NCBI GenBank assembly: GCA_009838735.1
Contig: VXQZ01000033.1
Location: forward strand, 50,826-114,825
Source of the DNA: Chloroflexota bacterium
Lineage (GTDB): Bacteria > Chloroflexota > Dehalococcoidia > Bin125
DNA length: 64,000 nt
Direction of reading: 5' to 3'
Position 1 is the stretch's first letter. Each line of letters begins with the position of its first letter. This document shows, in pieces, positions 4,330 through 61,420 of this stretch. The notes below the pieces were generated by a model. The model was not told the DNA's origin, made no database searches, and saw only the letters and a program-made list of their open reading frames with translations. Made by a program: the position numbers and the translations under genes.

Positions 4330-4406
4330 TGGTCGGAGCGGCCGGATTTGAACCGGCGACCTCTTGACCCCCAGTCAAGTGCGCTACCAAACTGCGCCAC
4401 GCTCCG
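4330..4406 (-). tRNA. tRNA-Pro (anticodon GGG)
   Basis: Reverse complement folds as a cloverleaf: acceptor CGGAGCG/CGCTCCG, D arm GCGC-AGTTTGGTA-GCGC, anticodon arm CTTGA-CTGGGGG-TCAAG (anticodon GGG), T arm GCCGG-TTCAAAT-CCGGC, discriminator A, encoded CCA. Confidence 0.85.
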
Positions 4407-7784: not shown

Positions 7785-8428
7785 CAGGCGACCAACCGCT
7801 GCGCAAATTCCCGCGCGGAATGTACTCCTGAGCCCCTCAACCGAACCGTTCTCTGGCTGCTCCGGGGCTTCCCCAATACGACCAGATCAGGACTCGTCTG
7901 TAAGGCCTTCGCGAAGTTCGGCTTGTCGTATTTTCGGTACTGTTCGACGACTTTGCGGATGTGGTCCATCTGGGTGTCAAGGCCTAGAGCGGTTCGCGCG
8001 CTTAGCACTAACAGCGCAATCTCGCGGGTGGCCTTGCCTTTCGCCGGGGACAGAAGATTGGGGCGCACTTGAACCTCGGGTTCAGCGTCTTCCAAGCCGA
8101 ACAGCATCTCTGCCTGTTCACCTTCGATCTCCAGATAGGAGGAAATCGCATCCATTCGCAGCTCAGGTGTCGAGTAAATGTCGTCCGCCTGTGATCCGTG
8201 CGGTTCTGCCGCGAGCGACGACTCACTCTCCTCGGTGCCGTCGGAGCGCACAGCATCTCCATTCCGGAGCATCGCTTCCAGGACAAGTCTGAATGCCGTT
8301 TCGCGCGTTTCCGGCGCGACTTCATCGCCGAGTTGCGATGCCGCTAGCCAAGCTTCCCGAACCAAGCCGGCCATCTTTAGGCCGGCGTTGGTCAGCGGCG
8401 CATCTGCGGTCTGAGCTTCTGAAACCAT
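7784..8428 (-). CDS. Hypothetical protein, partner of the HEPN-like gene (candidate antitoxin/sensor)
   Basis: 214 aa from the internal ATG (MVSEAQ) preceded by a GGGAGGG RBS; the longer ORF-track start lacks an RBS; no recognisable domain; acidic, helical. Confidence 0.55.
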   Translation of the reverse strand: MVSEAQTADAPLTNAGLKMAGLVREAWLAASQLGDEVAPETRETAFRLVLEAMLRNGDAVRSDGTEESESSLAAEPHGSQADDIYSTPELRMDAISSYLEIEGEQAEMLFGLEDAEPEVQVRPNLLSPAKGKATREIALLVLSARTALGLDTQMDHIRKVVEQYRKYDKPNFAKALQTSPDLVVLGKPRSSQRTVRLRGSGVHSAREFAQRLVA

Positions 8429-8454: not shown

Positions 8455-11400
8455 CTAGATAATAGCCAACTTCTCCAACACTGACGTCAGCACCGACTCC
8501 CAATCCGATTCTGCCAGCCGCCGAGCAGGCTGGTATCGCAGTTGCGTGGAGCCGATCTGCACCTGCCGAGGAACGGCGAGCCGTCGTTGCGACGAGCTGA
8601 AGTTCAGACCTGGCGCCAGGCGCAGGACCACGTTCTCTCCCTCGGACTGGATGGACTCGGCCCCGATCCTCGAAGCGAGCACCTTGAGCTTGACCGCGCC
8701 GAGCAGATTCTCGGTCGGCTTCGGCAGAACCCCGAATCGATCGTTCAGCTCGAGCCTGAAGTCTTCAATTTCATTTGGCGATTCGACGGCGGCCAGCCGC
8801 TGGTAGAGGGTCATACGCAGCCCGACATCGTCGACGTAGGACTCCGGAAGATAGCGAGGGATCGCGAGGTCGAGGTTGACCCTGGTTCCCTGACGGCGGC
8901 TGACGGGCCGCTGTCCAGATCGTTTCGCCTTCGATCGCTCGACTGCCTCGCCGAGCAGCTGAGTGAACAACGTGAAGCCGACCGCCCCGATGTGCCCCGA
9001 CTGTTGCGCGCCAAGCAGGTTGCCGGCGCCGCGGATTTCCAGGTCCTTGAGCGCGATCTGGAATCCGGCCCCGAGGTCGTCCGCCTCCATGATTGTGGCC
9101 AGTCGGCGCTGCGCCACTTCGGACAACGAACGGTACGGCTCGGTCATCAAGTAGGCGTACGCGCGCACGCTGGCGCGCCCGACACGCCCGCGGAGTTGGT
9201 ACATCTGCGCCAGTCCGAGCCGTTCGGCGCGGTCGATGATCATCGTGTTGACGCGAGGAATGTCGACGCCTGACTCGATGATCGTGGAGCAGACCAGAAC
9301 GTCCGCTTCGCCGTGGGTGAAGCGTTCCATGTGCTCGCGCAGGACATTGGCCGGCATCTGTCCGTGAGCGACCAGAAAGCTCGCCTCCGGCACCAGGCGG
9401 CTCAGCTCATTGGCCTCCCGGTCGATTGTTCTCACCTCGTTGTGCAGGAAGTAGACCTGACCGCCCCGATCGAGTTCCCGCAGGATCGCCTCGCGGATCA
9501 CGCTGTTGTCGCGTTCCATGACGTAGGTGCTGATCGGCAGTCGCTCTTCGGGCGGTGAAGCGATCGTCGACATGTCGCGGATCCCGGTCACCGCCTGATG
9601 CAGCGAGCGGGGAATCGGCGTCGCCGAGAGCGTGAGCACGTCAACCTCGCGGCGCAGCTTCTTCAGACGTTCCTTGTGTTCGACCCCGAAGCGTTGTTCC
9701 TCGTCGATCACCAGCAAACCAAGGCTCTTGAAGCCGATGTCCTTCTGCAGCAATCGGTGCGTGCCGATCGCGATATCAATCTTGCCGACCTTGAGTGCGT
9801 CCACTGTTTGTTGCTGTTCGGCCGATGTGCGTAGCCGGGACAGCAAGCCAATCTCGACCTGCATCGCAGCCAGGCGTTGGCGAAACGTCTCGTAGTGCTG
9901 TTGCGCCAACACCGTGGTCGGCACCAGCACGGCGACCTGATGACCGGACATGACCGCCTTGAATGCGGCGCGGATGGCGACTTCGGTTTTGCCGTAGCCG
10001 ACATCGCCGACGATCAGCCGATCCATCGGCCTGGACGCTTCCTGGTCTCGGCGGACTTCTTCAATCGCGCGATGCTGGTCGGTGGTCTCCACGTAGGGGA
10101 ACGACGCTTCCAGCTCGATCTGCCAGGGAGTATCCGGCTCGATCGGGATTCCCGGCTCGGTCTCCCGGGCGGCATGGAGCTCGAGCAAATCGTCGGCGAT
10201 CTCGGCGACCGCTCCACGGACCCGAGCCTTGGCCCGCTGCCACTGGCCGCCTCCGAGCCTGGTCAGCGTCGGCGGCGCATCGGAGGGGCCGACGTACGGC
10301 TGGACCCGGTCGAGCTTGTCGGTCGGCACCAGCAGTCGGTCGCCTTTGGCGAAACGCAGGTCTAGGTACTCGCCCTCGCGACCACCGATCCGTTCGCGAA
10401 CCACGCCATGGAAACGTCCAATGCCGCTATCGACGTGGACCACGTAGTCGCCTTGCTTGAGGCTTTCCAGCAGATGAGGATCCGAGGCAGGTACGGCACG
10501 GGTCTTGAGCGGTCGGCGCTGACGCTGACGCTCGAATCCGAATATCTCTGTGTCGCTGATCAACGTGACCAGACGCTCTCCGGTCTGCGGATCGTCAAGC
10601 CGCCAACCCTCCGCGATCGCCGCTCGCCCGATCGAGATCGCCAACCGATCAGGCCTGCTCCCAGGTTCCAGCTTCGACAGTGGCAACCCGAGGTCCGTCA
10701 TCAGTTCGGCCAGCCGCGCCTCTTGCAGGGAGACCACGACGTGGGCGCCGCGCCCTCTGGATTCGCGCAGCGATTCGAATAGCTGCGACAGTTTGCCCGC
10801 CAGTCGCGGAGTCGGTCGGAAGGGCAGACGCTGGTCGCCGCTGGCGAGACGGGACAGCGATCGGACCCGACGCGTCGACCGATACATCTCAGCTTCCAGC
10901 TCATCGCAGGTGAGCCACGGATGAGGGAGCCCGTGAGGGATGCGAGCCTCCCACTCCAGCTCACCGCGAGCGTCCTCGGCACGCTGATCACGCTCCTCGG
11001 CTCGAGCAGATACGTCGTGCGGCTCGTCGACGATGATCAATGCATCGTCGCCCAGATGGGCAAAGACCGTGCCGGATGCGAGAAACTGCGTCCAGAAGTC
11101 CGGCCGTGCCGTGGGACCGCCGTTTCGCAGGTGCTCCAGATCCAGCGTCAACAACGCGGCTTCCGCGGTCGGCTCCGCAGCGTCGTTCTCATCCCTGCGA
11201 TCCTGATCAACTGCCGTCAACAGTGCTTCGACCAGCGGTTCGCTGGCCGGCCCCGGACTCCACTCGCGAGCCGGCCGAACGGCGACCCGTTCGACAGCCT
11301 GCGTCGAGCGCTGGGTGAGCGGATCGAATCGGCGAATCGAGTCGATGTCATCGCCAAACAGCTCGACCCTGACCGGCTCGTCCTCGGCCGGCGGCCAGAA

Positions 11401-13189: not shown

Positions 13190-14773
13190 TCACTCTCCGA
13201 CGTACTTCTCGCCCAGGGCGGTTTCCCAGCGCAGGTAGTGCTGCATGTCGGCGTAGCCGCGCTGCGGACCGAAGGTCAGGATGTCGTTGGGCGGCGCGAG
13301 CACTCCCGTCAGGCCGTACTCGATCGGGAGCCCAGCCGCGTGCCAGTTGCCCATGCCGCCTGCGATCGCGGAGACGTTCGGGCGCCCCAATTCGAGCAGC
13401 GTCTGGGCTGCCAACAACGATTGCCGGCCGGACTCGCAGACGATAATCAACGGCGTCGACTCCTCCGGGGCCAACGATTGGATATCCCGCTCCAGCCAGC
13501 CTCTGGGCGCCCATCGAGCTCCCGGCGGATGCGCCCGAGCGAACTCCTCGCTCGTACCGACGTGCAGGATCACCGCGTCGGGCTGATCGAACGTCTCTGA
13601 AGCCTCAATGGTGATCACGGTCTGGCGTGCCTGCGACAACAGACCAGGCTCAGTTGTCCTCATGCCTGATTCCAATCGCCGGCCGGCCGAAGTCCACGCC
13701 TCTATCCCTCCATCGAGCGCATAGATGTGTCGATGGCCCATCTGCCGGTACCACGACGCCGTCAGCGCGGCGCGCGCCACGCCGTCGCAGGCGAACACGA
13801 TCGGCGCATGGTGAACAACCGCAACGTCATCGCTGCGCTGCACTGCCTGTCCACCGGGGAACCAGCGGAAGCCGGGGATGTGTCCGGCCTCGTGCTCGGC
13901 GTCGGTACGGACGTCGATGAGGTACACACTCTCCGACTGGCTCCGCCCGCGAAGCTCGTTCACTTGCTCGACGCCAATGAGTTGAACGCCATCCTCTTCA
14001 GCGCAGCGCCGCGCATACTGTTCGGCCGCAGCCTGACCCTCGGCGGAAACGGCGGGCAGCGCATCGCGGTCGGCGCCAAACTCAAGCTCGTGACCGGCCA
14101 GCATCCAGCCCGCGGTGCCGTTCTTCAGACCAATGACCTCGCGCTTCAAGGACATCCGCTGCAACACCCTGGTGCCAATGATGCTGCGCGTCCGTCCGGC
14201 GCAGTTGACCACCACCGTGGCGTCGTCCGGCGCGTCGGCAAGCACATCGGTGATCCGGAAGGCAAGTTCGCCTCCGGGCATGCTGCGCCCGCCGGGGATG
14301 CAGGAACGCCGGTACTCCTCCGGCGTCCGCGTGTCGAGGATTACCAGCGGGTCGCCGCGTTCTATCCGCGCATGCAGGTCGTCCGCGTCGATCTCCGGAA
14401 CGCGGTGCACGACCTCGACCCGCTCACCAAAGTCCTTGCTGGGCACATTGACGCCCCACTCGGTCGGCAGGTCGAGAAACGCCCAACGGTTGGTCCCGCC
14501 GGAAAGCGTCGAAACATCGGAGTAGCCCATGCGCTCAACCGTCTCGGCGGCAAAATGAACGCGCCGCTCATCCTCGTCGCACAGCACAATCGGCGTATCG
14601 CGATGTGGCACAGCCTCGGGAAGCTCGAACTCAAGCATCCGCCGAGGAATCAGGCTGGCCCCAACGATATGCGACGCGTTGTACTCAGGAGGATCACGAA
14701 CGTCTATCAAAGCAATCGGCGCATCGTCGGAAAGCCGGTCGTGGAGGTCGTCGGGTGTGATTGGTGGTGGCAT
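13190..14773 (-). CDS. Multi-domain rhodanese-like sulfurtransferase (four tandem rhodanese domains)
   Basis: 527 aa; repeated rhodanese modules with active-site Cys loops (CDEDERR, CAGRTRS, CDGVARA, CESGRQS). Confidence 0.85.
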   Translation of the reverse strand: MPPPITPDDLHDRLSDDAPIALIDVRDPPEYNASHIVGASLIPRRMLEFELPEAVPHRDTPIVLCDEDERRVHFAAETVERMGYSDVSTLSGGTNRWAFLDLPTEWGVNVPSKDFGERVEVVHRVPEIDADDLHARIERGDPLVILDTRTPEEYRRSCIPGGRSMPGGELAFRITDVLADAPDDATVVVNCAGRTRSIIGTRVLQRMSLKREVIGLKNGTAGWMLAGHELEFGADRDALPAVSAEGQAAAEQYARRCAEEDGVQLIGVEQVNELRGRSQSESVYLIDVRTDAEHEAGHIPGFRWFPGGQAVQRSDDVAVVHHAPIVFACDGVARAALTASWYRQMGHRHIYALDGGIEAWTSAGRRLESGMRTTEPGLLSQARQTVITIEASETFDQPDAVILHVGTSEEFARAHPPGARWAPRGWLERDIQSLAPEESTPLIIVCESGRQSLLAAQTLLELGRPNVSAIAGGMGNWHAAGLPIEYGLTGVLAPPNDILTFGPQRGYADMQHYLRWETALGEKYVGE

Positions 14774-14877
14774 GGCTGAAGTCTAGGTCCGAACTCATCG
14801 ACTGACTTCAGTTCGTCCCCCTCCGCCAATTCGCCGCGAGGAGACCCGCGCGTCGACCACGGACTTGCAGTTGCCGT

Positions 14878-14910
14878 CAACCCCCTCTCCCTCGGGAAGA
14901 GGGGACCGGA
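14878..14910. repeat. GC-rich palindromic repeat, family B (CCCTCTCCC-N3/4-GGGAGAGGGGACCGGA)
   Basis: ccccctctccctcgggaagaggggaccgga; related copies at 17298-17395 and 44166-44241. Confidence 0.7.
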
Positions 14911-14941
14911 ATGAGGATTGCGGATAGGTCTTGGGACGCCC

Positions 14942-16354
14942 CTATACCGCCGCCAACCGCGACGCCTTCTGCAGCGCATTCGCCGCGCGCTCGAAGCTGG
15001 GGAACGTGGCGATCCCCTCCTCCTGCAGCCTCATCCTCGCAGTCAGCGCGGCCTCCTCAACGTGGCTCGGATGCAGCGCCGCCAGGAACGGTTTGCCCGA
15101 CTCGGCCATGAACTTCTTCAGCGAGCCGATCAGGCGGTCGAACTCCTCCGGCTTGTCCTGCCAACGACGGGCCATGAATGTGGCCGAGAGTTCCATCCCG
15201 ACCGCGTCGATGTTCTCGTCTGCGTTGAGGATGTCGAAGATCGTGTCCAGGTGCTTGGGGTCCTGGCCGATCGTCCCCGCGGCGTCTAGCGGGTTACGGT
15301 AGCTGCCGCCGATGATGTTGAAGAACTCGGAGAGCTGGGCATAGCTCTCGTCTGAGAGCGTCGGCACCTTCCAGCCCGCCTTCTCAAAGGCGTCGGTAAG
15401 CACGACCGACTGTCCCCCGGTCATGGCGATCAGGCCGAGCCGATTGCCCTGGGTGCGCTTGGTCAGCAACGTGGCCTTGACCACATCGATCATCTCGTCG
15501 AGGTTATGCACCGCGACCGCGCCGACCTGCTTAATCATCGCCTCCCAGATCGCCTGGTCGCTGGCCAGCGAGGCCGTGTGCGAGCGAATCGCGCGTCCGC
15601 CGCCCTCGGTCTGGCCGCCCTTCCAGATGATCACCGGCTTCTTCGCGGCGACCTCGCGCAACGTCTTGAACAGGCGCTGCCCATCGCGGGCACCCTCGAT
15701 GTACATGCCGATCACTTCGGTCTGCGGGTCGTCGGCGAGGTACTCGAGGTAGTCGGCGGCCTCGAGAATGATCCCGTTGCCAAAGCTGACCAGGGTCGAG
15801 CAGTACAGGCCGTGCGCGGCGCCGGTCAGGGAGAAGTTCATCCCGTGGGTACCCGATTGCGAGACAAAGCCGATGTTGCCCTGCACGCCGGCCGGTTGGT
15901 CGCGGTTGAAGCGCACGCCGAGACCGGGCACGTGCAGCCCCATGCAGTTGGGTCCGATCAGGGCCAGTCCCGAGGGGTCGGCAATCTCAAAGATCTTGTT
16001 CTGCAGCTCGACGCCGATGTCTTCGCCGGTCTCGGCGAATCCGGAGGTGAACAGCGTGACGCCGCCGACGTTGGCCTCAACACAACCCTGGACGATGAAC
16101 GGCGCGACTTGTCGCGGCACTGCACAGACGGCGAAGTCGACCTGATCCGGAATGTCGGTCAGCGATTTGTAGTTGGGGATGCCCAGCTCTTCGATCCCGG
16201 GAATCTCGTTCTCGTCGACTTGCACGCTGTAAACGGGGCCGTCGAACTCTTTCATTGAGCGCAGCCAGTTGTAGCCACTCGCCTTCTTGTCGCCAATGAC
16301 GGCGACCACCTTGGGCGCAAGTGCACGGGTCAGGCGTTCACGTGTGACGGCCAT
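14942..16354 (-). CDS. Acetyl-CoA synthetase (ADP-forming), alpha subunit (CoA-binding/succinyl-CoA-synthetase-like)
   Basis: 470 aa; N-terminal CoA-binding Rossmann (VVAVIGDKKASG) plus ligase-CoA domains. Confidence 0.85.
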   Translation of the reverse strand: MAVTRERLTRALAPKVVAVIGDKKASGYNWLRSMKEFDGPVYSVQVDENEIPGIEELGIPNYKSLTDIPDQVDFAVCAVPRQVAPFIVQGCVEANVGGVTLFTSGFAETGEDIGVELQNKIFEIADPSGLALIGPNCMGLHVPGLGVRFNRDQPAGVQGNIGFVSQSGTHGMNFSLTGAAHGLYCSTLVSFGNGIILEAADYLEYLADDPQTEVIGMYIEGARDGQRLFKTLREVAAKKPVIIWKGGQTEGGGRAIRSHTASLASDQAIWEAMIKQVGAVAVHNLDEMIDVVKATLLTKRTQGNRLGLIAMTGGQSVVLTDAFEKAGWKVPTLSDESYAQLSEFFNIIGGSYRNPLDAAGTIGQDPKHLDTIFDILNADENIDAVGMELSATFMARRWQDKPEEFDRLIGSLKKFMAESGKPFLAALHPSHVEEAALTARMRLQEEGIATFPSFERAANALQKASRLAAV

Positions 16355-16377
16355 CGGAAGTCTCCTAGCTCAATCAG

Positions 16378-16502
16378 CCTCCCCCTCGCAGGGGGAGGTG
16401 CCGAACGCGGAGGGGGTCCCGCCCGGCATTGGCGAATCTGCTCGTAACACCGCGAAGGACCCCCTCAGTCGCTACGCGACAGCTCCCCCTGCGAGGGGGA
16501 GC
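16378..16502. repeat. Inverted pair of ~43-nt GC-rich repeat units, family A (GCTCCCCCTCGCAGGGGGAGC-TGCCGAA-N-GAGGGGGTCCC), MITE-like
   Basis: Left unit 16378-16420 and right unit 16457-16502 are near reverse complements; each unit contains a 9-bp-stem hairpin; a single copy lies at 22017-22058. Confidence 0.75.
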
Positions 16503-16509
16503 GGGATTT

Positions 16510-17205
16510 CTACGAGTCTGAAGTCAGCAGAATGCGGGCGTCAACGGCGATCGCCCCATCGGGACGCGCGAAGACGGGATTGAGGTCCAGCTCCGCGATT
16601 TCCGGGTTTGCTTCCGCAAACTCCGAGAGCTGCAGCAGCATCGACTCAATTGCCTCGAGGTTGGCCGCCGGCTGACCGCGGAAGCCCTCGAGCAGCGGGA
16701 ATCCCTGGATCTCGCGAACCATCTCGGCAGCGTCACGCGGTTCGAGCGGGACAATACGGAAGGCGACGTCCTTGAGCACCTCGACGAACACGCCGCCGAG
16801 GCCGAACATCAGGACCGGTCCGAACTGCTGATCCTGGGTAATCCCCAGAATCACTTCCGCGCCCGGCTCGGCCATCGGCTGCACCGACACGCCCTGCGCC
16901 TGTGGATCGTCCACAGCGGCGGTCACCCGTTCGTGGATGCGCTCACAGGCGGCGCGCAACGCGTCCTCATCGGCGACGCCCAACTCGACGCCGCCGACAT
17001 CGGTCTTGTGCGTGATCTTGTCCGAGACCACTTTGAGCGCAACCGGATAGCCGAGCTCGGCAGCGTGTGCGGCGGCCTCGTCGATGGACGTGGCTAGCCG
17101 AGTCTCGGTCACATTGATCCCGGCCTCGGCCAGTAACTGCTTGGCCTCCACCTCGGACAGAATGGTGCGGTTCGCGGCGCGCGCGGCGGCAATGACATCG
17201 GTCAT
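16510..17205 (-). CDS. Acetyl-CoA synthetase (ADP-forming), beta subunit (ATP-grasp)
   Basis: 231 aa from the internal ATG (MTDVIAAAR) with GGAG RBS; ATP-grasp motifs (GYPVALKVVSDKITHKTDVGGV). Confidence 0.85.
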   Translation of the reverse strand: MTDVIAAARAANRTILSEVEAKQLLAEAGINVTETRLATSIDEAAAHAAELGYPVALKVVSDKITHKTDVGGVELGVADEDALRAACERIHERVTAAVDDPQAQGVSVQPMAEPGAEVILGITQDQQFGPVLMFGLGGVFVEVLKDVAFRIVPLEPRDAAEMVREIQGFPLLEGFRGQPAANLEAIESMLLQLSEFAEANPEIAELDLNPVFARPDGAIAVDARILLTSDS

Positions 17206-17297
17206 GGGCGTCTCCGGCAGGAATGGGCGTTCAACTGCGCGCAGAATACACGCCGACTTCCGAACCGCGGACGCGGACCTGGTCCGCATGAGGCGAG

Positions 17298-17395
17298 ACT
17301 CCCTCTCCCTCTGGGAGAGGGCTGGGGTGAGGGTCCCTTCTCGCTAACCGGCGGACCCTCACCCTAACCCTCTCCCTCGGGGAGAGGGGACCGGA
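17298..17395. repeat. Inverted pair of family-B palindromic repeat units
   Basis: ctccctctccctctgggagagggctggggtgagggtccc (17298-17337) and ggaccctcaccctaaccctctccctcggggagaggggaccgga (17354-17395) are near reverse complements; located in the divergent promoter region. Confidence 0.7.
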
Positions 17396-17470
17396 GCTAA
17401 CTCTCGGCGTTGGGCGACCGGCTATTCTGTATACTCAGTTTCGCAGTTAAGAATCGCTGAGGAGTTGGCC

Positions 17471-17689
17471 ATGGCCGAGGGTGACCCGTTCGAGGACTGG
17501 CTGGACATCGTCGAGGCGGCGAGGGAGCTGAACATCCATCCGCAATCCATGCGCCGGCTAATCAAGCAGGGCCGGGTCCCCGCCCGCCTCTACGGCGGCA
17601 AGTACCTCATCGAGCGAGACCAACTCCTCATGTTCAAGTCCAACTACGACCCCCGCCCCGGCCGCAAGCGCTCCCCTCGGCTGCTGTAG
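17471..17689 (+). CDS. Helix-turn-helix (excisionase/MerR-like HTH_17) DNA-binding protein
   Basis: 72 aa; ARELNIHPQSMRRLIKQGRVPARLYGGKYLIERDQL is a classic HTH_17 pattern; GAGGAG RBS 6 nt upstream of ATG. Confidence 0.8.
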   Translation: MAEGDPFEDWLDIVEAARELNIHPQSMRRLIKQGRVPARLYGGKYLIERDQLLMFKSNYDPRPGRKRSPRLL

Positions 17690-17701
17690 GGGGCTCCTCA
17701 C

Positions 17702-18109
17702 TTAGCCGAATGCAATGAGCAACCCTGAGACGAGCACCGTGGCGGAGAATCCCAGGCCGACGACTCCGATCACCCAACCGCGCAATTTTGCATCTCGTTC
17801 TTCTTGGTCTCGCGCGCGCTGGCGCTCACGTTCATCCCGTTCCCGCTCCCGCACATTGTTCTCTTCTCGGAAATCACTGATTTCCTTGCGAACATCGGCC
17901 ATGAACTGCGCTTGCTGAGCTGCAATCTCCGCTCGCTCAATCCGCCATTGTTCGATCAGCGCCTCCAGCGTGTCCTTACGCGCCAGCGGCTCCATGGCTT
18001 CATCGAGCAGTTCATCCGCGAAAACTGCGAGAGGCTCGGCCATCGATTCCGGGCAAAGGTGTTGGGTGATCAGCGAGTCACGTGTCTTGAGAACGTCGAT
18101 CGATGCCAT
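17702..18109 (-). CDS. DUF1640-like coiled-coil protein with C-terminal TM helix (paralogue 2, longer)
   Basis: 135 aa from the internal ATG (MASIDV) with GAGG RBS; Glu/Arg-rich coiled coil; C-terminal KLRGWVIGVVGLGFSATVLVSGLLIAFG. Confidence 0.55.
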   Translation of the reverse strand: MASIDVLKTRDSLITQHLCPESMAEPLAVFADELLDEAMEPLARKDTLEALIEQWRIERAEIAAQQAQFMADVRKEISDFREENNVRERERDERERQRARDQEERDAKLRGWVIGVVGLGFSATVLVSGLLIAFG

Positions 18110-21965: not shown

Positions 21966-22016
21966 GTGCGGGACCTACCGGCCGCGCAACATGCGCTAAC
22001 CCTCTCTATCTTCTTC

Positions 22017-22058
22017 GCTCCCCCTCGCAGGGGGAGCTGCCGAAGGCTGAGGGGTCCC
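22017..22058. repeat. Single copy of the family-A GC-rich palindromic repeat unit
   Basis: gctccccctcgcagggggagctgccgaaggctgaggggtccc, near-identical to the units at 16378-16502. Confidence 0.75.
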
Positions 22059-43322: not shown

Positions 43323-44183
43323 TCACGTCTTGAAGAAGTCCCTGAACTGGTACCACTGGTCCGGCGCCGCGTCGACTGCACGCTGGAAGGCTGGCAGCAG
43401 CGGAACGCCTGCGCGGTGGTCCAGGTCGATGTGGGGTACGAAGCGAAGGTCGTGACCCTGGCGGGTCGCGGCGAGGGGGACGAGCTTGGCGCCGGTTGAC
43501 TCGGCGATCCGGTGGATTTCGTTGGGAAGGACAACTCTGTGGCCGAACAGGGTTTCGGTGGTGGTCCGTTCGTTCGGGCGGGGCGGGCGGTCGAAGAGGA
43601 TGGCGGCGGTTCCGTTGTCGTTGAGATGGGAAACGATTTGACGCAGGCCTCGGCGACCGCTGGCCGGGGCCATGCCGAGGCGGGATCGCTGATCCTGGAT
43701 GGCTCGATTGAGGGCCGGGTGGCCGAGGTCTTCCACGAGGACCATTGAGGGACCGATCCGGTGGGTGTAGGCGCCGCCGAGGATGTCCCAGTTGCCGAAG
43801 TGGATGACGGCGAACAGGATTGGGCGGCGTTGGTACAACTCTTCAAGTTGCTTCCACTGGTCGACCCAAACCGGATCGTCGCCTCCGACTGCCGCGTAAC
43901 AGTCGGCCGAACTGAGTTCGTCGAGGCGGACGGCGTCAACCAGGTACTCGCCGTACCGTTGAAACTGGGCGCGGGCCAGGGATGAGGCAGAGCCGATCCA
44001 ATCAACGTGCGGTAGGAGCAACTCGGCGTTGCGCCGGGCGGCGTTGCCGCCTCTGGGCCAGCCGAGGTAGACGGCGTCCATGAGGCGTCGGGCGGTGGCG
44101 TAGGCGAGGGGCCGTGGGAGGGCTCGGGCTGCGCGACCCAGTGTCTGATAGCCGAGGGCGAGCGGATTCATCGGAGCCCTCAC
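43323..44183 (-). CDS. Second LPLAT-family lipid acyltransferase
   Basis: 286 aa; HFGNWD acyltransferase H-x4-D motif. Confidence 0.75.
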   Translation of the reverse strand: MRAPMNPLALGYQTLGRAARALPRPLAYATARRLMDAVYLGWPRGGNAARRNAELLLPHVDWIGSASSLARAQFQRYGEYLVDAVRLDELSSADCYAAVGGDDPVWVDQWKQLEELYQRRPILFAVIHFGNWDILGGAYTHRIGPSMVLVEDLGHPALNRAIQDQRSRLGMAPASGRRGLRQIVSHLNDNGTAAILFDRPPRPNERTTTETLFGHRVVLPNEIHRIAESTGAKLVPLAATRQGHDLRFVPHIDLDHRAGVPLLPAFQRAVDAAPDQWYQFRDFFKT

Positions 44184-44241
44184 CCTAACCCTCTCCCAGA
44201 GGGAGAGGGGACGAGAGATCTTCAGCCAGAGGGGGAGGGAA
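44166..44241. repeat. Family-B palindromic repeat unit plus a partial copy
   Basis: gagccctcaccctaaccctctcccagagggagaggggac followed by agccagagggggagggaaccgga; overlaps the first 18 nt of the LPLAT gene (43323-44183) and continues into the gap before the ino1 stop (44250). Confidence 0.65.
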
Positions 44242-44249
44242 CCGGAAGG

Positions 44250-45353
<1,104 letters not shown>

Positions 45354-61361: not shown

Positions 61362-61420
61362 AGCTCCCCCTGTTGGGGGAGCTGTCACAAGGTGACCGAG
61401 GGCGCTCCCCAATTGGGGAG
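61362..61420. terminator. Three consecutive GC-rich hairpins between convergent genes (family-A-like)
   Basis: agctccccctgttgggggagct, gtcacaaggtgac, gctccccaattggggag. Confidence 0.55.

Follow-up and report, generated by a model that had tools for sequence, protein, structure and literature searches.

An inverted pair of intergenic repeats assignable to the BoxC family in a sponge-associated member of the Chloroflexota

The inverted repeat at positions 17298-17395 of the analyzed window, a 64,000-nucleotide stretch of a Chloroflexota genome, is, judged by its sequence, an inverted pair of BoxC elements made up of one type B and one type A unit. The repeat is the one already described under the names BoxC, PIT, TM_ECO and HPG1-HPG2 and does not represent a new family; the host phylum is new. 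The pair is quite probably a REP-like, selfish and non-autonomous repeat rather than a regulator of the neighboring genes. The original prediction had recognized a second, distinct repeat family at this place, which is real, and had missed its identity with the published BoxC.

The two facing units that had been predicted for this region were confirmed by reading the sequence. The left one, a type B-like BoxC unit on the minus strand (17298..17336), reads CCCTCACCC-CAG-CCCTCTCCC-AGA-GGGAGAGGG-AGT and was assigned by pattern match and by alignment with the type B unit between hrpB and mrcB of E. coli. On the plus strand it appears as the reverse complement of a full unit, CCCTCTCCC-TCT-GGGAGAGGG-CTG-GGGTGAGGG from the hairpin to the third arm (17301-17333), with the hairpin at 17301-17321, the second loop CTG at 17322-17324 and the third arm GGGTGAGGG at 17325-17333, and this strand carries the G-quadruplex-capable run GGGAGAGGGCTGGGGTGAGGG. 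The right unit is of type A, lies on the plus strand (17356..17395) and consists of CCCTCACCC-TAA-CCCTCTCCC-TCG-GGGAGAGGG followed by the tail GACCGGA. Its minus strand contains GGGAGAGGGTTAGGGTGAGGG, which is identical to the HPG1 sequence of E. coli, and the reverse-strand arrangement GGGAGAGGG-TTA-GGGTGAGGG is a textbook G-quadruplex run. Between the units lies a non-conserved spacer of 16 nt (17337..17352), flanked by TCC (17334-17336) and GGA (17353-17355), which lengthen the central stem. The spacer length of 16 nt given by the original prediction holds if these complementary triplets are counted in the arms, and 22 nt separate the 9-mer arms. Both sequence and length of the spacer vary, with 18 nt in E. 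coli and about 49-50 nt in the related locus L141.

A full unit follows the plan CCCTCACCC-N3-CCCTCTCCC-N3-GGGAGAGGG, in which a mirror-symmetric 9-mer is present three times; two of the copies form a 9-bp GC-rich hairpin, and the third (CCCTCACCC / GGGTGAGGG) is placed 3 nt off. Read on its G-rich strand, each unit gives a canonical G3N3G3N3G3N3G3 run, and the mirror-repeat rule is obeyed as well. The combination CCCTCTCCC-N2-8-GGGAGAGGG was counted three times in the window and not once in 100 dinucleotide-preserving shuffles. The bare 9-mer, with one mismatch allowed, is not enriched in the window (30 vs 25.9), so that the signal is the composite unit. Chance and low complexity were excluded by the shuffles and by the size of the pattern (27 specified bases) relative to the collection. 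The region 17285-17405 (121 nt) folds into one long imperfect hairpin with -79.7 kcal/mol as RNA (z = -6.2 versus shuffles) and -39.4 kcal/mol as DNA (z = -5.5 versus shuffles), whereby these energies describe Watson-Crick folding.

The assignment to BoxC is based on several lines of evidence. The TM_ECO pattern CCCTCNCCC-N3-6-GGGNGAGGG-N3-GGGNGAGGG is matched exactly at 17301-17333 on the plus strand and at 17356-17388 and 44177-44209 on the minus strand, and 14883-14903 fits the hairpin part only. A blastn search with 17290-17400 against complete E. coli genomes gave matches in 5409 of the 5426 genomes, at a median of 18 places per genome, the best one with 83% identity over 95 nt (E = 2e-16). 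In the alignment with the hrpB-mrcB spacer of strain K-12, the same order of type B unit, spacer, type A unit and GACCG tail was found. On the basis of these matches and of the hrpB-mrcB layout, the feature is assigned to the already described family, for which the host phylum is new. A literature search with the bare 9-mers yielded mostly irrelevant primer matches.

The family has been described under different names. TM_ECO corresponds to the BoxC of the 1990s and to the PIT element of 2000 (Holder et al., 2015, PMC4666352), where PIT stands for potential intrastrand triplex and is attributed in that paper to Hoyne et al. / Maher et al. (2000). BoxC is always located between genes, occurs as type A (TTA) and type B (CCG), and forms five inverted pairs in K-12, all of them A+B (PMC4666352). 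The 21-mer GGGAGAGGGTTAGGGTGAGGG, present 13 times in E. coli K-12, has been termed HPG1, and its variant with a CCG loop HPG2 (Kaplan et al., 2016, PMC5100583). The window element shares with BoxC of E. coli the 9-mers and their order, the loop lengths, the 21-mer GGGAGAGGGTTAGGGTGAGGG, the two sub-types and their A+B inverted pairing, the strictly intergenic location and the decay products, namely solo hairpins and slip deletions. It differs in its host, a sponge-associated member of the Chloroflexota, in the second loop of type B, which is CTG in the window and CCG in most E. coli copies, and in the stem of type A, which is perfect here and has one mismatch in most type A copies of K-12. 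The loops of the window pair are CTG (B-like) and TTA (A), and those of the L141 pair are CCG and TTA.

Unlike BoxC of E. coli, the window copies carry the lineage-specific tail GACCGGA. It was found at three independent loci of this genome, and a GACCG tail is also present in copies from E. coli, Planctomycetota and Cyanobacteria. That the 3′ GAC is part of the target DNA was rejected, since the longer tail GACCGGA recurs at the three loci and GACYG is found again in E. coli and Pseudomonas.

The original prediction had placed the pair between divergent genes for an ACS-beta subunit and an HTH protein; this was confirmed, and gene identities and starts were refined. The left gene, on the minus strand, encodes the beta (ATP-grasp_5) subunit of an ADP-forming acyl-CoA synthetase and likely starts with the ATG at 17205. 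The right gene encodes an HTH_17 protein of 72 residues with its ATG at 17471, so that the intergenic region comprises 17206-17470. The pair is located 11-25 nt upstream of both presumptive core promoters. Its variable spacer part is bounded by the conserved sequences AACTGCG...TATACAGAATA and GTGTATTCTGCGCGCAGTT (window 17233-17251), which are probably operators or core promoters. Inverted motifs of the form TATTCTG...CGCAGTT at 17233-17251 and 17423-17448, one beside each divergent gene, are kept in most relatives and are probably HTH_17 operators overlapping the -10 regions. Additionally, a perfect small palindrome, GCGGACC-T-GGTCCGC (17273-17287), separates the BoxC pair from the ATP-grasp promoter region; none of the compared relatives has it.

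All four sites originally predicted in the 64 kb exist and lie between called genes, and two of them differ in their unit content from what had been assumed. The site at 14878-14910 has hairpin and tail, lacks the CCCTCACCC arm and has one stem base changed (GGAAGAGGG). It is a solo hairpin on the plus strand, CCCTCTCCC-TCG-GGAAGAGGG with the tail GACCGGA (14883..14910), between the genes for the alpha subunit of the synthetase and a rhodanese. The site at 44166-44241 resolves into one full unit and a remainder. The full unit is a single type A unit on the plus strand (44177..44212), CCCTCACCC-TAA-CCCTCTCCC-AGA-GGGAGAGGG-GAC, between two co-directional minus-strand genes coding for a myo-inositol-1-phosphate synthase and a lipid A-type acyltransferase. 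The remainder is a partial second 3′ half (44231..44246, plus strand), reading GGGGGAGGG-AACCGGA.

Orthologous loci were collected via the ATP-grasp protein, and the spacers to the HTH gene were compared together with the protein identity to the window's protein. The closest loci (L139-L141, 98-99.6%) have a rearranged BoxC pair with a degenerate left unit and a spacer of about 49-50 nt, and their type A unit contains an extra small hairpin, CCCGCCTACGCGGGGG, between the CCCTCACCC arm and the TAA-hairpin (about 2880-2960 in L139). The spacer is empty in L142 and L143 (96.5%, 135 nt) and in L124 (89%, 143 nt). One or two copies of another repeat, here called family C (CACCCCCTCTGTCCCTTTGGGACATCTCCCCCTCGAGGGGGAGATCGGG), occupy it in L123 and L129-L137 (92-93%), and a variant of family C does so in L144 (95.7%). 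Relatives could have carried the same sequence as ordinary conserved promoter DNA, which had been named as an argument against the original prediction; instead, their spacers are empty, rearranged or filled with another repeat. The pair is therefore regarded as a dispensable passenger in a permissive spacer and not as conserved promoter DNA.

The loss of copies can be followed in the spacer between the alpha subunit and rhodanese genes. L141 has a complete A+B pair there, both flanks of which match those of the solo hairpin in the window, and the window is 94 nt shorter, with the junction inside the repeated 9-mer GGGAGAGGG. By this comparison the hairpin at 14883-14910 is an A+B pair collapsed by a 94-nt deletion. 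BoxC pairs decay by deletion between the repeated 9-mers, which leaves a solo hairpin. In E. coli, the hrpB-mrcB spacer exists as a full pair in K-12, as a solo hairpin in an O111 strain and as an empty site in Nissle, and an O145 strain has a 12-nt slip between the two C-rich arms. Between adk and hemH (L270 / L273 / L274), about half of the E. coli genomes have a 157-nt segment with BoxC and a terminator-like hairpin, and the remaining ones have an unrelated 53-nt segment with a different hairpin; the whole spacer has been replaced rather than interrupted by a simple insertion. The zntA-tusA spacer of E. coli shows little length variation.

This gain and loss among relatives supports the earlier suggestion of a mobile or structural element, and the features of a classical transposition event were not recovered with it: no transposase was found, and neither a target-site duplication nor a clean insertion footprint was detected at the Chloroflexota spacers or at hrpB-mrcB and adk-hemH of E. 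coli. Direct repeats flanking the BoxC pairs were not found either. As filled and empty spacers are largely non-homologous, gain possibly occurs by recombination of whole spacers and not by transposition.

Three other explanations were considered, all of which are weakened because the orthologous spacers are empty and the published functional assays in E. coli were negative. The best of them, a regulatory switch of non-B DNA, is improbable. A cruciform, an intrastrand triplex or a G-quadruplex / i-motif, formed under negative supercoiling or transcription, would tune the promoters of the HTH_17 gene and the synthetase operon, which fits the position of the pair close to both presumptive core promoters; however, the same divergent genes do without any element in the strains with 96.5% and 89% ATP-grasp identity, and other strains have an unrelated repeat at the same site. 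The G3N3G3N3G3N3G3 runs and a fold far better than that of shuffles point to structures which were indeed obtained with oligonucleotides of the E. coli element: the isolated strand forms a triplex (PMC4666352), and quadruplex and hairpin are interconverted with K+ or Mg2+ (PMC5100583). In contrast, a triplex was detected neither by in vivo DMS footprinting in E. coli nor with duplex DNA in vitro (PMC4666352). In E. coli, PIT elements had no promoter or terminator activity according to Hoyne and Maher (2002), as cited in PMC4666352 and PMC8044849, and the copies have no link to gene class or ORF distance (PMC4666352).

An element acting at the RNA level, i.e., a transcribed hairpin which shields the 3′ ends of mRNAs, sets segments of an operon apart or blocks a ribosome-binding site, is very improbable. 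Two of the four sites are located between co-directional genes, while the studied pair lies upstream of both divergent genes and need not be transcribed. REP elements are known to stabilize mRNA. At the acyltransferase gene, the GGGTGAGGG arm (44177-44185), downstream of the myo-inositol-1-phosphate synthase gene, ends 5 nt before the ATG (44171, minus strand); BoxC therefore likely supplies the GAGG Shine-Dalgarno-like sequence of this gene. The partial copy upstream of it (CCCTCCCCC on the minus strand), the complement of 44231-44246 on the mRNA strand, is C-rich and able to pair with this arm, but the RNA fold of 44160-44255 is no better than that of shuffles (z = -1.2). That the repeat is not a simple terminator, as originally proposed, agrees with a terminator scan of 14700-17800, in which no terminator was found at the copies at 14883 and 17298-17395; the sole site (17409-17422) is outside the element, and no promoter site coincides with the units. 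By reading the sequence, no T-run, and hence no U-tract in a transcript, was found after the hairpin of any unit, 44177-44212 included. Searching the window against Rfam at the gathering score gave no family for the repeat, as only a tRNA at 4333-4406 passed, and a permissive search gave sub-threshold microRNA-precursor matches typical of any long hairpin. In addition, the orientation of the E. coli copies to the genes is unbiased (PMC4666352).

Least probable of all is a recombination or instability hotspot retained for useful variation, as proposed by Holder et al. (2015): in Chloroflexota and E. coli, it is the spacers with BoxC that vary while the rest of the locus is conserved, deletions end inside the repeated 9-mers and TM_ECO loci have a raised local sequence variability (PMC4666352), but any selfish repeat that forms structures should be just as unstable, the changes hit the element itself and not the neighboring genes, the variation is not known to bring a benefit, and the near-identity across phyla and the covarying base pair described below are left unexplained.

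The preferred reading, a selfish and non-autonomous repeat, draws on the likeness of BoxC to REP sequences. REP/PU sequences and their BIME clusters are mobilized by RAYT, a REP-associated tyrosine transposase (Y1 HUH), and also occur as REPIN doublets. The RAYT gene is usually flanked by its own REPs, and a tetranucleotide, GTAG or CGTC, directly precedes the REP palindrome on the 5′ side. Like these, BoxC units are short, GC-rich, imperfect palindromes restricted to intergenic regions, with two sub-types alternating in type and orientation, doublets which form long hairpins, lineage-specific flanks and presence/absence polymorphism. Among the matches listed, 44 inverted neighbor pairs were found across phyla, of which 29 are heterotypic (C+T), 12 are C+C and 3 are T+T. 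Head-to-head and tail-to-tail pairs both occur, as do alternating clusters (B-A-B and similar in L014 and L034). Unlike REPs, BoxC has no GTAG/CGTC tag on the 5′ side, the 5′ flank of its G-rich strand being GGTC (type A) or NCY (type B), and it has an extra third arm. Moreover, REP sequences vary from genus to genus, whereas the core of BoxC stays almost the same even across phyla. An associated RAYT gene was not found: a tblastn search with a single query, E. coli RayT, against the window and 2.18 Mb around about 240 copies gave nothing below E = 2. To our knowledge, no transposase is known for BoxC. Holder et al. found no mobility genes near TM_ECO (PMC4666352).

Two further kinds of repeats resemble BoxC in part. 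MITEs such as ERIC / IRU, Correia (NEMIS) and RUP share with the BoxC pair (about 95-130 bp) the inverted ends, the long hairpin and the scattered intergenic location, whereas BoxC has neither a target-site duplication nor a parent insertion sequence. Since single units and both pair arrangements occur, the BoxC pair does not constitute a single element of fixed extent with defined ends. The quadruplex-plus-C-tract repeats of Methanomicrobiaceae (Chashchina et al., 2021, PMC8044849) are also intergenic, combine a G4-capable run with a partly complementary C-rich tract, and have hairpin, triplex and quadruplex in equilibrium in vitro; in contrast to BoxC, their C-tract is located 3′ and not 5′ of the G-run, their sequence is another one and their hosts are archaea.

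The proposal that this genome is rich in such elements was borne out, as another repeat in the window, family A, and family C in the relatives behave alike. Family A (CCCCTCAG..GC(A/T)GCTCCCCC-loop-GGGGGAGC) was observed at 16372-16415, 16462-16508, 22016-22054 and 61366-61402; it forms an inverted pair in the spacer that separates the beta and alpha genes of the synthetase, and the other sites hold one copy each. The 155-nt spacer holding its pair corresponds to an empty spacer of 33 nt in L141-L143. Its design is BoxC-like, with a C-rich arm, a small hairpin and a main hairpin built on the mirror-symmetric 9-mer CTCCCCCTC, and the type A unit of L139-L141, through its extra small hairpin, has the same layout of arm, small hairpin and main hairpin as families A and C. 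Upstream of the ATP-grasp gene, at the position taken by the BoxC pair in the window, family C occurs once or as two direct copies (L123 200-380, L129-L137, L144), and the HTH/ATP-grasp spacer is a hotspot for several repeat families. Families A and C were rejected as independent proof of a mirror-repeat (triplex) rule: because their 9-mers (CTCCCCCTC) are also mirror-symmetric, direct and mirror repeats are indistinguishable in them. In L142 (5153-6426), a gene with a GmrSD_N domain and a DDE transposase gene take the place of the rhodanese gene that follows the synthetase, so that the neighborhood is variable in its genes as well. The related contig L134 is interrupted by a run of N (about 1250-1350) located exactly in the spacer with repeats that separates the two synthetase genes, which suggests that the repeats break short-read assemblies.

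The distribution of BoxC was analyzed in one genome per species with the pattern CCCTCACCC-NNN-CCCTCTCCC-N2-6-GGGAGAGGG. Among the matches listed, exact BoxC matches come from at least about 16 phyla, with the phylum taken from the record titles. These matches include isolates (Pseudomonas, Acinetobacter, Leptolyngbya) as well as complete MAG chromosomes (Dehalococcoidia, Rubrivirga, Thermodesulfobacteriota), and among those listed for IMG/VR contigs exact matches were found as well. For comparison, Holder et al. count TM_ECO in 262 proteobacterial genomes and cite Hoyne et al. for Synechocystis (PMC4666352). The core is surrounded by lineage-specific flanks, e.g., GACCGAGGTGT in Pseudomonas and GCCTGATG in enterobacteria. 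One IMG/VR contig (L179) has three BoxC-like units (1360-1391, 8017-8048 and 9320-9351), which are an all-T variant with the CCCTCTCCC arm and are located in the intergenic gaps of a cluster encoding terminase, portal, capsid, tape measure and a 1240-aa tail protein. This cluster is possibly an alphaproteobacterial gene transfer agent.

A further regularity was found at the foot of the hairpin, where the first mid-loop base (Y) covaries with the second base 3′ of the hairpin, being C-G or T-A in 89% of the copies, a value that shared ancestry may inflate and of which it could give much, as the two common states coincide with the sub-types A and B. Among the matches listed, the two positions are Watson-Crick in 133 of 150 genome copies and in 120 of 135 IMG/VR copies (0.89 each), the latter forming a set that is independent of the genome scan and was retrieved with a looser pattern. 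The listed genome copies comprise 75 C-G, 52 T-A and 17 others, with a mutual information of 0.72 bit, and the listed IMG/VR copies 79 C-G and 39 T-A (n=134). Slid positions used as controls gave 0.10-0.50, none of 20000 permutations reached the observed value, and the intervening bases are purines with pairing of at most 0.09. All three full units of the window obey this Y:R rule, and one enterobacterial sub-family with shared flanks contains C-G, T.G and T-A forms, the usual path of compensatory change. An explanation of the covarying pair as a continuation of the triplex (Hoogsteen) or as a coaxial extension of the stem was rejected, since the register is off by one in each case. We infer that, at the foot of the hairpin, the pair would shut off an internal loop of 2x1 purines, a detail of the kind read by proteins; in naked nucleic acid, an isolated pair across such a loop would be unstable. 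This covariation, the BIME-like alternation of sub-types, the lineage-specific flanks and the phage-type setting of the L179 units are not noted in the accounts of Holder et al. and Kaplan et al. (PMC4666352, PMC5100583).

For a selfish BoxC, the following mechanism can be proposed. The element would act while the DNA or its transcript is single-stranded, as a hairpin closed at its foot by the covarying Y:R pair across a small purine-rich internal loop, and a trans-acting protein would recognize this shape and copy or maintain the element. Such recognition is proposed because the fold is precise and the sequence is near-identical across phyla. A host function for BoxC is possible. The most far-reaching version, a pan-bacterial REP/BIME-like single-strand element whose foot and third arm are read by one conserved candidate protein that copies or maintains it, is unlikely as it stands, but if true, such a protein would explain how the same sequence of about 35 nt occurs from E. 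coli to Chloroflexota, Planctomycetota and Cyanobacteria as well as in the phage- or GTA-type cluster of L179.

For the annotation of this genome, the inverted repeat at 17298-17395 belongs to a known class of intergenic repeats and is to be treated as a dispensable passenger, not as an operator, a terminator or a small RNA. The repeats can be used as markers of strain-level variation and are a likely cause of assembly breaks in these MAGs. Full, solo-hairpin and empty alleles are common to E. coli and Chloroflexota. Three decades after the discovery of BoxC, the identity of its core across phyla, the replicated Y:R covariation and the BIME-like alternation of its sub-types provide handles for finding its putative recognizer. 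Finding such a protein would settle the case of an orphan repeat first described in the 1990s.
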